From Escherichia coli (GTDB lineage Bacteria; Pseudomonadota; Gammaproteobacteria; Enterobacterales; Enterobacteriaceae), in NCBI RefSeq assembly GCF_003334255.1, contig NZ_QOWU01000019.1: a stretch of DNA of 64,000 nucleotides, one strand, 5' to 3'. Below the pieces are notes generated by a model. The model saw only the letters and a list, made by a program, of their open reading frames with translations, searched no databases and was not told the origin of the DNA. The position numbers were made by a program, and so were the translations under genes. Shown here piece after piece: positions 29,252 through 40,544 of the stretch (positions are counted from its first letter, which is position 1; the number at the start of each line of letters is the position of its first letter).

Positions 29252-29440
29252 CAGGGACATCCTTTTATCATCGGGAATACGAAAGAAAAGGGAGAATAAA
29301 CGCCTTACTTATAGAACAGTGAAGAATGCCACAATTTTACGCTTTGAAAATGATGACACTATCACAGTTGGCGCATTCATTAACGATAGGGTATAAGTAA
29401 AACAATAAGTTAACACCGCTCACAGAGACGAGGTGGAGAA

Positions 29441-32664: not shown

Positions 32665-32839
32665 ATCTTATCCGACCTTTCAGGCCAGATCCTCGGAAGG
32701 GGAAGTTGATTAATTTGTGTGAAATACACATTGAAAGCCGATTCGAAGAAAGTGAACCGGCATTTTCAGTGGCTAGTATAGCGTAAGGTACTGTAAAGTC
32801 GCCAGAGGGTTAAAATTCAGACTGCTGATAAATGCAATA

Positions 32840-32942
32840 CTGCCTGATGCGCTATGCCAATCAGGCCTACGCAGTCCTTGCAATATATTGAATTTGGACG
32901 ATTTTGTAGGCCTGGTAAGGCGTTTACGCCGCATCTGGCATA
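32840..32942. repeat. REP/BIME palindromic units between ytfL and msrA
   Basis: tgcctgatgcgctatgccaatcaggcctac and inverted copy gtaggcctggtaaggcgtttacgccgcatctggca. Confidence 0.6.
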
Positions 32943-39342: not shown

Positions 39343-39684
39343 ATGCGAATATTTGTCTACGGCAGTTTACGCCACAAACAAGGCAACAGTCACTGGATGA
39401 CCAATGCCCAGTTACTGGGCGATTTCAGTATCGATAACTACCAGTTGTATAGCCTGGGCCACTATCCAGGCGCAGTTCCGGGGAACGGAACAGTACACGG
39501 TGAAGTTTATCGTATTGACAACGCCACGCTGGCCGAACTTGATGCCTTGCGCACCAGGGGCGGTGAATACGCGCGCCAGTTGATTCAGACGCCGTACGGG
39601 AGTGCATGGATGTACGTTTATCAACGACCCGTCGATGGATTAAAGCTAATTGAAAGCGGCGACTGGTTAGACAGGGATAAGTAA
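39343..39684 (+). CDS. ytfP: Gamma-glutamylcyclotransferase-family protein YtfP
   Basis: 113 aa; MRIFVYGSLRHKQGNSHWM. Confidence 0.8.
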   Translation: MRIFVYGSLRHKQGNSHWMTNAQLLGDFSIDNYQLYSLGHYPGAVPGNGTVHGEVYRIDNATLAELDALRTRGGEYARQLIQTPYGSAWMYVYQRPVDGLKLIESGDWLDRDK

Positions 39685-39841
39685 TAATAAAAGCACGCCA
39701 CCTTCGGGTGGCGCGAAAACTGATGTAATGCAATGAAAAATAAAGGATTATTTTTCGAGTTGTCCACATATTGCCATGGCGTTCTAAATTTTTTTGGTGA
39801 GACTATCTCTGCTTGTTGTTTTCACCGCCAGGTTGTTAAAC

Positions 39842-39881
39842 AAAAAAAGCCCACAGTTTTTACGCTGCGGGCTTTGTTTTT
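39842..39881. terminator. Bidirectional rho-independent terminator (ytfP on plus; Hok-like transcript on minus)
   Basis: aaaaaaa-gcccacag-tttttacg-ctgcgggc-tttgttttt: hairpin flanked by A-run and T-run. Confidence 0.65.
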
Positions 39882-39966
39882 CTTTGTGACTTGCGTGTGA
39901 GGGTGCGACTTTCGACCGAACCTTCGGCAACCGGATAGCGGGGGCTTTCACCCCCGCTGCGGTTTC

Positions 39967-40107
39967 TTACTGTTTACACTGCAAGAACGCCGCAAATTCT
40001 GACCACATGATGTTAAGTCTGAACTCACACGGCGAACGGTGTATCATCCAGATGGTCAACAACATGGTTAAGCATAAAATGCTCACGATGATCGTTTTTT
40101 GCGGCAT
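39967..40107 (-). CDS. Candidate Hok/Gef-family type I toxin (46 aa, single TM helix)
   Basis: AAGGAG Shine-Dalgarno 9 nt upstream of ATG; MPQKTIIVSILCLTMLLTIWMIHRSPCEFRLNIMWSEFAAFLQCKQ; resembles recalled Hok motifs (CLT..LL, R-S-x-C-E-F-R, E-F-A-A-F); below the track's 60 aa cutoff. Confidence 0.45.
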   Translation of the reverse strand: MPQKTIIVSILCLTMLLTIWMIHRSPCEFRLNIMWSEFAAFLQCKQ

Positions 40108-40169
40108 AGCGCTTGACTCCTTTTACAGGGAGGCGCTAACCTTCCACTTGTCTAGGGTAGGAATGGTTA

Positions 40170-40210
40170 GGGCCTCGGGTTAAACAATATGTTTGACTCG
40201 GGGCCTTTTC
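40170..40210 (+). ncRNA. Candidate antisense (Sok-like) RNA 3' end: plus-strand intrinsic terminator within the 5' leader of the Hok-like gene
   Basis: Imperfect hairpin gggcctcggg...ctcggggcc followed by tttt on the plus strand only; no plus-strand CDS ends here. Confidence 0.3.
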
Positions 40211-40241
40211 ACATCCGGCCTTCAGGTAATCCTTCCAGCCG

Positions 40242-40544
40242 TCAGCCGAAAGGCACCCGCGCGTAATGTACAGTTTTTGACTGGGAGGCGCAATCGCCCA
40301 GGGGTAGGCTGAGTTGATCCCTTCCCCGGTGGCATGATTTGAAAGCGTCTGCGGGGACGACTCCCCGTTCTTCGGTGGGTTGCGGACGGCATACGGTTCT
40401 CACGACAAACTCGTGCGTCACAAAGGTGGCGCTGCATTCAATGTTGTTGCACTGGTAATATTTCTCCCTGATTGTTCCTGTATCGTTGGCGTCGCGGCTT
40501 GTTCTGGTGCGGGTACTTGCTCCGCAGTATGGGCAAGGATGCAT
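40242..40544 (-). CDS. ogr: Late-gene transcriptional activator, Ogr/Delta zinc-finger family
   Basis: MHPCPYCGASTRTRTSR...YYQCNNIECSATF: Cys4 zinc-finger pattern of P2 Ogr. Confidence 0.75.
   Translation of the reverse strand: MHPCPYCGASTRTRTSRDANDTGTIREKYYQCNNIECSATFVTHEFVVRTVCRPQPTEERGVVPADAFKSCHRGRDQLSLPLGDCASQSKTVHYARVPFG

Follow-up and report, generated by a model that had tools for sequence, protein, structure and literature searches.

A probable hok/sok-type cassette with no conserved mok frame, carried as cargo by a P2-like prophage of Escherichia coli

The stretch of Escherichia coli DNA analysed here (64,000 nt of contig NZ_QOWU01000019.1, assembly GCF_003334255.1; the window) contains, between the ogr-like gene and the attachment site (att) of a P2-like prophage inserted at the terminator of ytfP, a cassette of ~400–460 bp that is very probably an accessory type I toxin–antitoxin (TA) system of the hok/sok kind. 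It would consist of a structured hok mRNA on the minus strand and a Sok-like RNA of ~61 nt on the plus strand, and this reading accounts for the structured, open reading frame (ORF)-poor 460 bp between ogr and att. Both the toxin family and this kind of phage cargo are known, the cassette being an ordinary example, and the apparent loss of mok, the third gene of the classical system, is its sole non-routine point.

The toxin gene is a 46-codon coding sequence (CDS) on the minus strand (39967–40107), whose 46-aa product, MPQKTIIVSILCLTMLLTIWMIHRSPCEFRLNIMWSEFAAFLQCKQ, falls in the Hok/Gef family and in cluster 82 of a 2026 catalogue of Hok peptides. Its Shine–Dalgarno (SD) sequence, AAGGAG (40117–40122, minus strand), lies 9 nt upstream of the ATG at 40107. 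An earlier reading made without database searches (the sequence-only reading) had described this short frame with its AAGGAG ribosome-binding site (RBS) and had proposed a Hok/Gef-type toxin, to be checked by a profile search; the search agrees with it, since PF01848 (HOK_GEF, Pfam) matches residues 9–44 of the peptide (model positions 7–42 of 42, E = 6.9e-6) and PHROG 251, 'MokW-like host killing', matches the whole peptide (residues 1–46, E = 3.6e-19). All database relatives of the peptide are E. coli proteins labelled 'Hok/Gef family protein', and it is 45% identical to K-12 HokA by BLASTP. The 46-aa length and an uncharged stretch from I6 to I22 fit the family plan of ~50 aa with a single N-terminal hydrophobic helix. 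Moreover, the residues marked as conserved in the family logo of the catalogue are M1, C16, T18, L30, C31, E32, and E41 (10.1101/2025.08.07.668861), and an alignment through HokA brings M1, C12, T14, C27, E28, and E37 of the peptide to these positions; the sole departure is Pro26 in place of Leu, and Pro26 is invariant within cluster 82. Judged by its sequence, the 46-aa ORF is thereby a Hok/Gef membrane toxin of the HokA-like branch.

Cluster 82 and its sister cluster 72 make up a phage-borne clade in which 18 distinct CDS were compared, and every one of them has 46 codons. Relative to the window copy, dN/dS ranges from 0.10 to 0.45 at dS of up to ~1.1, and by this measure the Hok peptide is under purifying selection. 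In one cluster member, P0004, the conserved Cys27 is replaced by Tyr (SPYEF); in HokB-like toxins, TadA-dependent A-to-I recoding of Tyr (UAC-G) to Cys is described at that position (10.1101/2025.08.07.668861). A 58-aa plus-strand ORF antisense to hok (40007–40183) and other small ORFs were treated as chance.

The boundaries of the cassette are given by an alignment of 20 copies taken from RefSeq E. coli genomes, GenBank phages, and IMG/VR contigs, in which conservation spans exactly the interval from the hok −35 element to GCACCC (39901), with unrelated flanks on both sides. Read from the sequence, the hok promoter (40265–40293, minus strand) is composed of a −35 TTGCGC (40288–40293), a 17-nt spacer, and a −10 TACATT (40265–40270), with a predicted transcription start at the G of position 40258. 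The predicted full-length hok mRNA (39839–40258, minus strand; ~420 nt) would comprise the leader, the CDS, a 3′ untranslated region (UTR) with a fold-back element, and a terminator. Its 5′ end is formed by the tac element GGGUGCCUUUCGGCUGA (40242–40258, minus strand), which is invariant in all cassettes and occurs once in the window, and the partner of this 5′ end is the fold-back inhibition (fbi) element GGUCGAAAGUCGCACCC (39901–39917, minus strand), at which the homology common with Stx phages stops. Between the CDS and fbi, a G+C-rich stem-loop, CAGCGGGGG-UGAAAG-CCCCCGCU (39937–39959, minus strand), is likely to be the protective 3′ hairpin of the processed mRNA, by analogy with R1 hok (PMC9841398). 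Downstream of fbi lies a Rho-independent terminator (39839–39875, minus strand) with its stem at 39846–39875 and a T-run reaching ~39839, which the terminator scan scored with 11 pairs and a T7 run; in cassettes from other contexts, a terminator of a different sequence class occupies the same place. The structured region and the strong intrinsic terminator announced 3′ of hok by the sequence-only reading are thus this hairpin and this terminator. Rfam matches to Thr_leader at 39820–39963 (E 0.15–0.87) were dismissed as terminator look-alikes.

The full-length hok RNA has a minimum free energy (MFE) of −170.3 kcal/mol, with z = −8.2 against shuffled sequences, and in the MFE structure the 5′ end pairs with the 3′ fbi, which is the Hok-type fold-back for which folding of the leader had been suggested. 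Helices 1 and 2 of the tac/fbi pairing are 97–99% paired in 19 cassettes despite two sequence variants of fbi. Folding 19 distinct cassettes to a consensus gave 98 pairs (97.9% paired), 17 of which show compensatory changes, compared with 7.9 ± 1.7 after column shuffling and 3 at most in slid registers. Compensation is concentrated in the 3′ stem-loop (helix 16, with compensatory changes in four of nine pairs), in helices inside the coding region, and in a long-range helix between the Sok target and the 3′ UTR. This last helix (columns 108–116 with 326–334 of alignment A2, i.e., ~40141–40151 with ~39926–39935) connects the distal part of the stem at the Sok target with the 3′ UTR immediately upstream of fbi and, with four of its eight pairs compensatory, shows the best covariation outside the 3′ stem-loop. 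The hok start region (AUGCCGCAAA, 40098–40107) also forms a 10-bp helix with the codons of the EFAAF motif (UUUGCGGCGU, 39987–39996), which is 99.5% paired across the cassettes (A2 columns 152–161 with 263–272), so that some of what looks like conservation of the protein may reflect a constraint on the RNA. The leader matches Rfam RF01794 ('sok') over 40096–40258 on the minus strand (44.7 bits, E = 5.4e-8, model positions 1–157 of 157). The family bears the name 'sok antitoxin', but its model lies on the strand of the hok mRNA and stops at the AUG of hok; a match to it therefore marks the toxin leader and not the antitoxin strand.

The plus strand is predicted to carry a Sok-like antisense gene with the expected layout. 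Its promoter, as read from the sequence (40113–40142, plus strand), would combine a −35 TTGACT (40113–40118), which overlaps the hok SD, an 18-nt spacer, and a −10 TAACCT (40137–40142); this −10 is invariant in 19 of 19 cassettes, is found as the same TAACCT in the intact hokA locus, and matches the consensus at only three of six positions. The RNA itself would start at a purine at 40150 and end at 40210 (plus strand, ~61 nt, both ends predicted), being complementary to the hok leader. Its predicted fold (−27 kcal/mol) leaves a free, single-stranded 5′ tail of ~20 nt followed by a terminator hairpin, namely a perfect 18-bp hairpin at 40170–40205 followed by UUUU at 40206–40209, and this arrangement exists on the plus strand only. 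In position, length, and shape, the predicted RNA matches the annotated K-12 SokC (59 nt), which terminates in a similarly short U-run. The plus-strand-only hairpin noted in the hok leader by the sequence-only reading is present, and the candidate antisense RNA that it put forward is made plausible by the SokC-equivalent position, the overlap of the −35 with the hok SD, and the −10 shared with hokA. The antisense gene and the mRNA ends, as predicted here, are annotated in no database.

Among named toxins, the closest is that of hokA/mokA/sokA, an E. coli chromosomal system that is intact in NZ_CP028192 and disrupted by IS150 in K-12. The window peptide has in common with HokA the MPQK N-terminus, both cysteines hard-coded, and the AAFL.CK tail, and the leaders follow the same plan, with a GGGUGC 5′ end, GAGGC, the AAGGUUAGCCUC box, and the Sok −10 TAACCT. 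However, hokA has an ATG-initiated mokA 7 nt after GAGG and in frame with hok, whereas the window locus is without such an ORF; in addition, the segment before the SD is ~11 nt shorter in the window locus, and the peptide has 46 aa as against the 50 aa of HokA. With hok/mok/sok of R1, the cassette would share the tac/fbi fold-back, the ucb and dcb alternative pairings, the metastable 5′ hairpin, the protective 3′ stem-loop, a Sok complementary to the leader, and a hok start region that base-pairs with the AAF-motif codons, all of them features of R1 (PMC9841398) that are predicted here. The R1 system is carried on a plasmid and includes mok, whereas the window locus is on a prophage, lacks mok, and has an Rfam score under gathering. 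hokW-sokW, from the Stx2 prophage Sp5 (Takada et al. 2021), is a type I TA that aids lysis after induction (PMC8621323) and resembles the window cassette in being a prophage-borne pair and in the name of its PHROG family. HokW is a 51-aa HokC/D-like paralogue starting MKQQKAM (primer YO-357), and its leader starts GGGTGCTTGAGGC, like that of hokC; in the portions compared, the window locus differs from both the primer-encoded N-terminus MKQQKAM and the leader GGGTGCTTGAGGCTATC. The window cassette belongs to a different cluster from HokW and, in Stx phages, adjoins lom. Within cluster 82, to which the window peptide belongs, the catalogued member 82_1289 has the sequence MPQKTIIVGMLCLTMLLTVWVLHASPCEFRVSFMWSEIAAFLQCKP (10.1101/2025.08.07.668861), and that preprint covered coding sequences only, leaving aside Mok, Sok, and the structure of the mRNA.

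In R1, mok must be translated at least as far as the hok SD (PMC9841398), and the mok frame of R1, hokA, and hokC starts 7–8 nt after GAGG and runs into hok. The sequence-only reading, which had proposed a Hok-type locus, needs a correction here, as the classical third gene, mok, appears to be missing in all 20 cassettes examined. The motif GAGGC (40172–40176, minus strand), which is the homologue of the mok SD, is invariant and has no start codon after it: in none of the 20 cassettes does an ATG, GTG, or TTG stand 4–15 nt after GAGG. Within the clade, a TAA or TAG closes the hok frame ahead of its start codon, and between GAGGC and the SD the cassettes differ by indels whose lengths are not divisible by three. 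With no conserved mok ORF, control appears to act directly on the hok RBS.

The elements that could exert such control are recognizable in the leader. An anti-SD, GCGCCUCC (40129–40136, minus strand), which includes a dcb-like GCCUC, forms with the hok SD an interrupted 8-bp hairpin (−8.9 kcal/mol) when the RNA is folded either at full length or with the Sok target blocked. In the full-length fold, tac pairs with fbi and GAGGC with GGCC (ucb); in the free truncated fold, from which fbi is removed, tac pairs with AGGCCCC (ucb) and GAGGC with GCCUC, so that the SD is left in a 3-bp helix. When the Sok-complementary stretch (nt 49–109) is blocked in the folding, the anti-SD hairpin re-forms. The alternative tac/ucb and SD/dcb pairings are also helices of the RF01794 model alignment. 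Since the switch helices are invariant, covariation neither supports nor contradicts them.

On these grounds, the phage-borne clade of clusters 82 and 72 is tentatively proposed, as a reading about as apt to fail as to hold, to be a mok-less variant of hok/sok in which GAGGC would have ceased to recruit ribosomes and would serve purely as an anti-anti-SD that unmasks the hok RBS after 3′ processing, an effect that Sok would reverse, and in which the indel-rich loop and tail would give co-resident or tandem cassettes orthogonal Sok specificities. First, the full-length mRNA would be locked by the pairing of its 5′ tac with its 3′ fbi, with the hok SD held in the 8-bp anti-SD hairpin. Slow trimming of the 3′ end would then remove fbi, the 5′ end would pair with ucb, and the freed GAGGC would take up the GCCUC of the anti-SD and expose the SD. 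As long as Sok is present, its 5′ tail would bind a 14-nt apical loop and the duplex would extend over GAGGC, so that the anti-SD hairpin could re-form, and the duplex between Sok and the mRNA would presumably be cut by RNase III. Finally, when Sok is depleted or no longer resupplied, as upon prophage loss or induction, Hok would be made and the inner membrane damaged. These steps are drawn from family homology and folding, except for the tac/fbi pairing, which covariation supports. The clade, found in 13% of complete E. coli genomes, keeps every RNA switch element of the R1 paradigm without a conserved mok. If the proposal is right, hok control would not need coupling to the translation of a leader peptide, and the clade would offer a simpler model of a three-state RNA switch. 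Searching the literature for hok loci without mok brought up nothing of relevance; T1TAdb and subscription papers lay outside this search, so it is not proof that such loci are unpublished.

On several IMG/VR phage contigs, two cassettes of the clade stand in tandem, ~460–720 bp apart, and some of the pairs combine clusters 82 and 72. Such copies were located at 3000 and 3472 in L008, 2542 and 3000 in L010, 2527 and 3000 in L011, 3000 and 3724 in L014, and 2211–2561 and 2681–3033 in L016. Tandem copies differ mainly in the indel-rich segment that forms the Sok 5′ tail and its target loop, and from their sequences it looks as if these differences kept the antitoxins orthogonal.

Several observations weigh against the cassette being an active hok/sok system of the kind described. 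The NCBIfam HokA equivalog NF007290 gives 36.8 bits (E = 2.9e-9) and does not reach its curated cut-off of 89 bits; with a score so far under the cut-off, the peptide is HokA-like and not a HokA orthologue. The RF01794 match is under the gathering score of 59 and is not reported at the gathering threshold, so standard Rfam annotation would miss the hok leader. Both promoters are weak by consensus, the U-run of the Sok terminator has only 3–4 U, and all three elements escaped a simple promoter and terminator scan, the Sok terminator because its U-run has only 4 U; as they are too weak for the scan, they were placed by homology and conservation. Folding of the truncated RNA still puts the SD in a predicted helix, one of only 3 bp. 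Moreover, given that R1 depends on mok (PMC9841398), a mok-less locus could be translationally silent, and work cited in the preprint (10.1101/2025.08.07.668861) reports several hok loci on chromosomes that do not bring about post-segregational killing.

The alternative that survives best concerns the function of the cassette and not its identity, and it is compatible with the hok/sok reading: a role other than prophage addiction, either in host lysis and phage release upon induction or in abortive infection against other phages, is a fair possibility, if somewhat less likely than not. The R1 hok/sok system has been reported to exclude T4. As for lysis, hokW-sokW advances it and doubles the release of Sp5 (PMC8621323), and the arrangement of the window locus is in keeping with this role, as the ogr-like ORF (40242–40544, minus strand) ends inside the hok leader. 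The last ~17 codons of this ORF and its stop (40242) lie inside the cassette, over the hok promoter and the first 17 nt of the leader, and neither the sequence nor the terminator scan revealed a terminator between ogr and hok. Thus, ogr transcription can read into hok and oppose or collide with Sok transcription, and this overlap without a terminator hints, from the sequence, at a link to induction. On the other side, the preprint reports no enrichment of hok next to defence systems (10.1101/2025.08.07.668861). Prophage addiction, assistance to lysis, and phage exclusion are not mutually exclusive.

It is rather unlikely that translation of a mok-like leader persists, with the non-canonical AUU (40162–40164) as its start, and that the classical translational coupling is retained in this way. 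This AUU stands where the ATG of mokC aligns, 8 nt after GAGG, with a spacing identical to that of mokC, and would open a 13-codon upstream ORF ending at a UAA that overlaps the hok SD; in R1, mok translation need only reach the hok SD (PMC9841398). The in-frame ATT at −57 with a stop at −18 is found in the window and in L008, and an ATC occupies the equivalent place in L014, L015, L016, and L018. However, the frame is not conserved, as L001, L002, and L012 read ATC-TAA at this place, L005 stops after three codons, L003, L004, and L011 have no candidate start, and the segment changes by indels that are not multiples of three.

It is quite improbable that the locus is a regulatory fossil, conserved through recent spread, from whose native mRNA Hok is never translated without mok, so that no killing occurs in situ; the mok requirement of R1 (PMC9841398), the lack of mok in the window locus, and the chromosomal hok loci without post-segregational killing mentioned in the preprint (10.1101/2025.08.07.668861) would fit it, but dN/dS stays at 0.1–0.45 at dS of up to ~1.1 with 46 codons kept in 18 of 18 distinct CDS, the RNA helices are preserved through compensatory changes, several phage lineages and 13% of complete E. 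coli genomes still carry the cassette, and the loss of mok is common to two diverged peptide clusters, all of which argues for a stable functional state and not for decay.

The hok/sok cassette lies between ytfP (39343–39684) and the ogr-like ORF. A 17-bp sequence, GCCACCTTCGGGTGGCG (39697–39713), corresponds to the ytfP terminator hairpin and to the end of the prophage, and homology to K-12 ends at 39713. In strain DETEC-S792 (NZ_CP116067), which has the same insertion, this 17-mer recurs between the prophage integrase and chpS, and it is thus taken as the att core, which also lies at ~11301–11317 in L022. The att core is the terminator hairpin of ytfP, and integration rebuilds a terminator for this gene. 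The prophage is P2-like by its genes for Cox, an integrase, a replication endonuclease, D, the ogr-like protein, and tail sheath and tube proteins; the ogr-like ORF has 100 aa, and only its residues 4–64 match the phage regulator profile. The cassette lies ~125 bp inside the att core. The same cassette accompanies ogr and D in prophages beside serS, where the sequence diverges from 39838 outward; further copies lie between the ogr-like gene and com/methylase/int in P88 and Chuche, which are free P2-like phages, and, at 79–85% identity, beside lom in Stx-converting phages. In phage Chuche (L004, 1451–2393), the region from ogr to int contains the hok cassette, a com-like gene, and a DNA methyltransferase, an arrangement by which the interval between ogr and att looks like a general cargo site in the P2-like group. 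Since the cassette is found in several unrelated phage contexts and the att core lies outside it, it is mobile phage cargo and not an element of the junction between host and phage. The sequence-only reading had placed the locus between ytfP and ogr as either phage cargo or a junction addiction module; the location and the cargo stand, whereas the junction module is rejected, because the cassette lies inside the att core, within the prophage, and moves with the phage.

Of 5426 complete E. coli genomes, 715 carry the cassette, at 895 places in all and in up to seven copies per genome, and the matches listed bear the PGAP label 'Hok/Gef family protein'. When contigs of species-representative genomes were scanned with the cluster alignment, using two strict peptide patterns, no relatives came up, which suggests, as far as sequences go, that the clade is confined to mobile elements of E. 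coli and Shigella. The sequence-only reading had also considered the locus invisible to the ORF track; this holds for the 60-aa ORF track only, whereas RefSeq annotates near-identical loci. In the preprint, hok is enriched in prophages, and cluster 82 (defined at 60% identity) is a high-abundance peptide cluster, whose cloned representative 82_1289 was assayed for toxicity and, since the only constructs found non-toxic were three others, counts as toxic on induction (10.1101/2025.08.07.668861). This representative matches the 74–76% identical database relatives P0006 and P0007. The locus had been correctly read and, in view of the RefSeq annotation and the preprint catalogue, was already known.

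Elsewhere in the window, Rfam matches at gathering level correspond to ordinary RNAs of the E. coli core genome, namely the RpsF leader (9369–9453, plus strand), the small RNA ES239 (29252–29374, plus strand), STnc450 (32726–32783, minus strand), and ES036 (CssrF; 32863–32905, minus strand).

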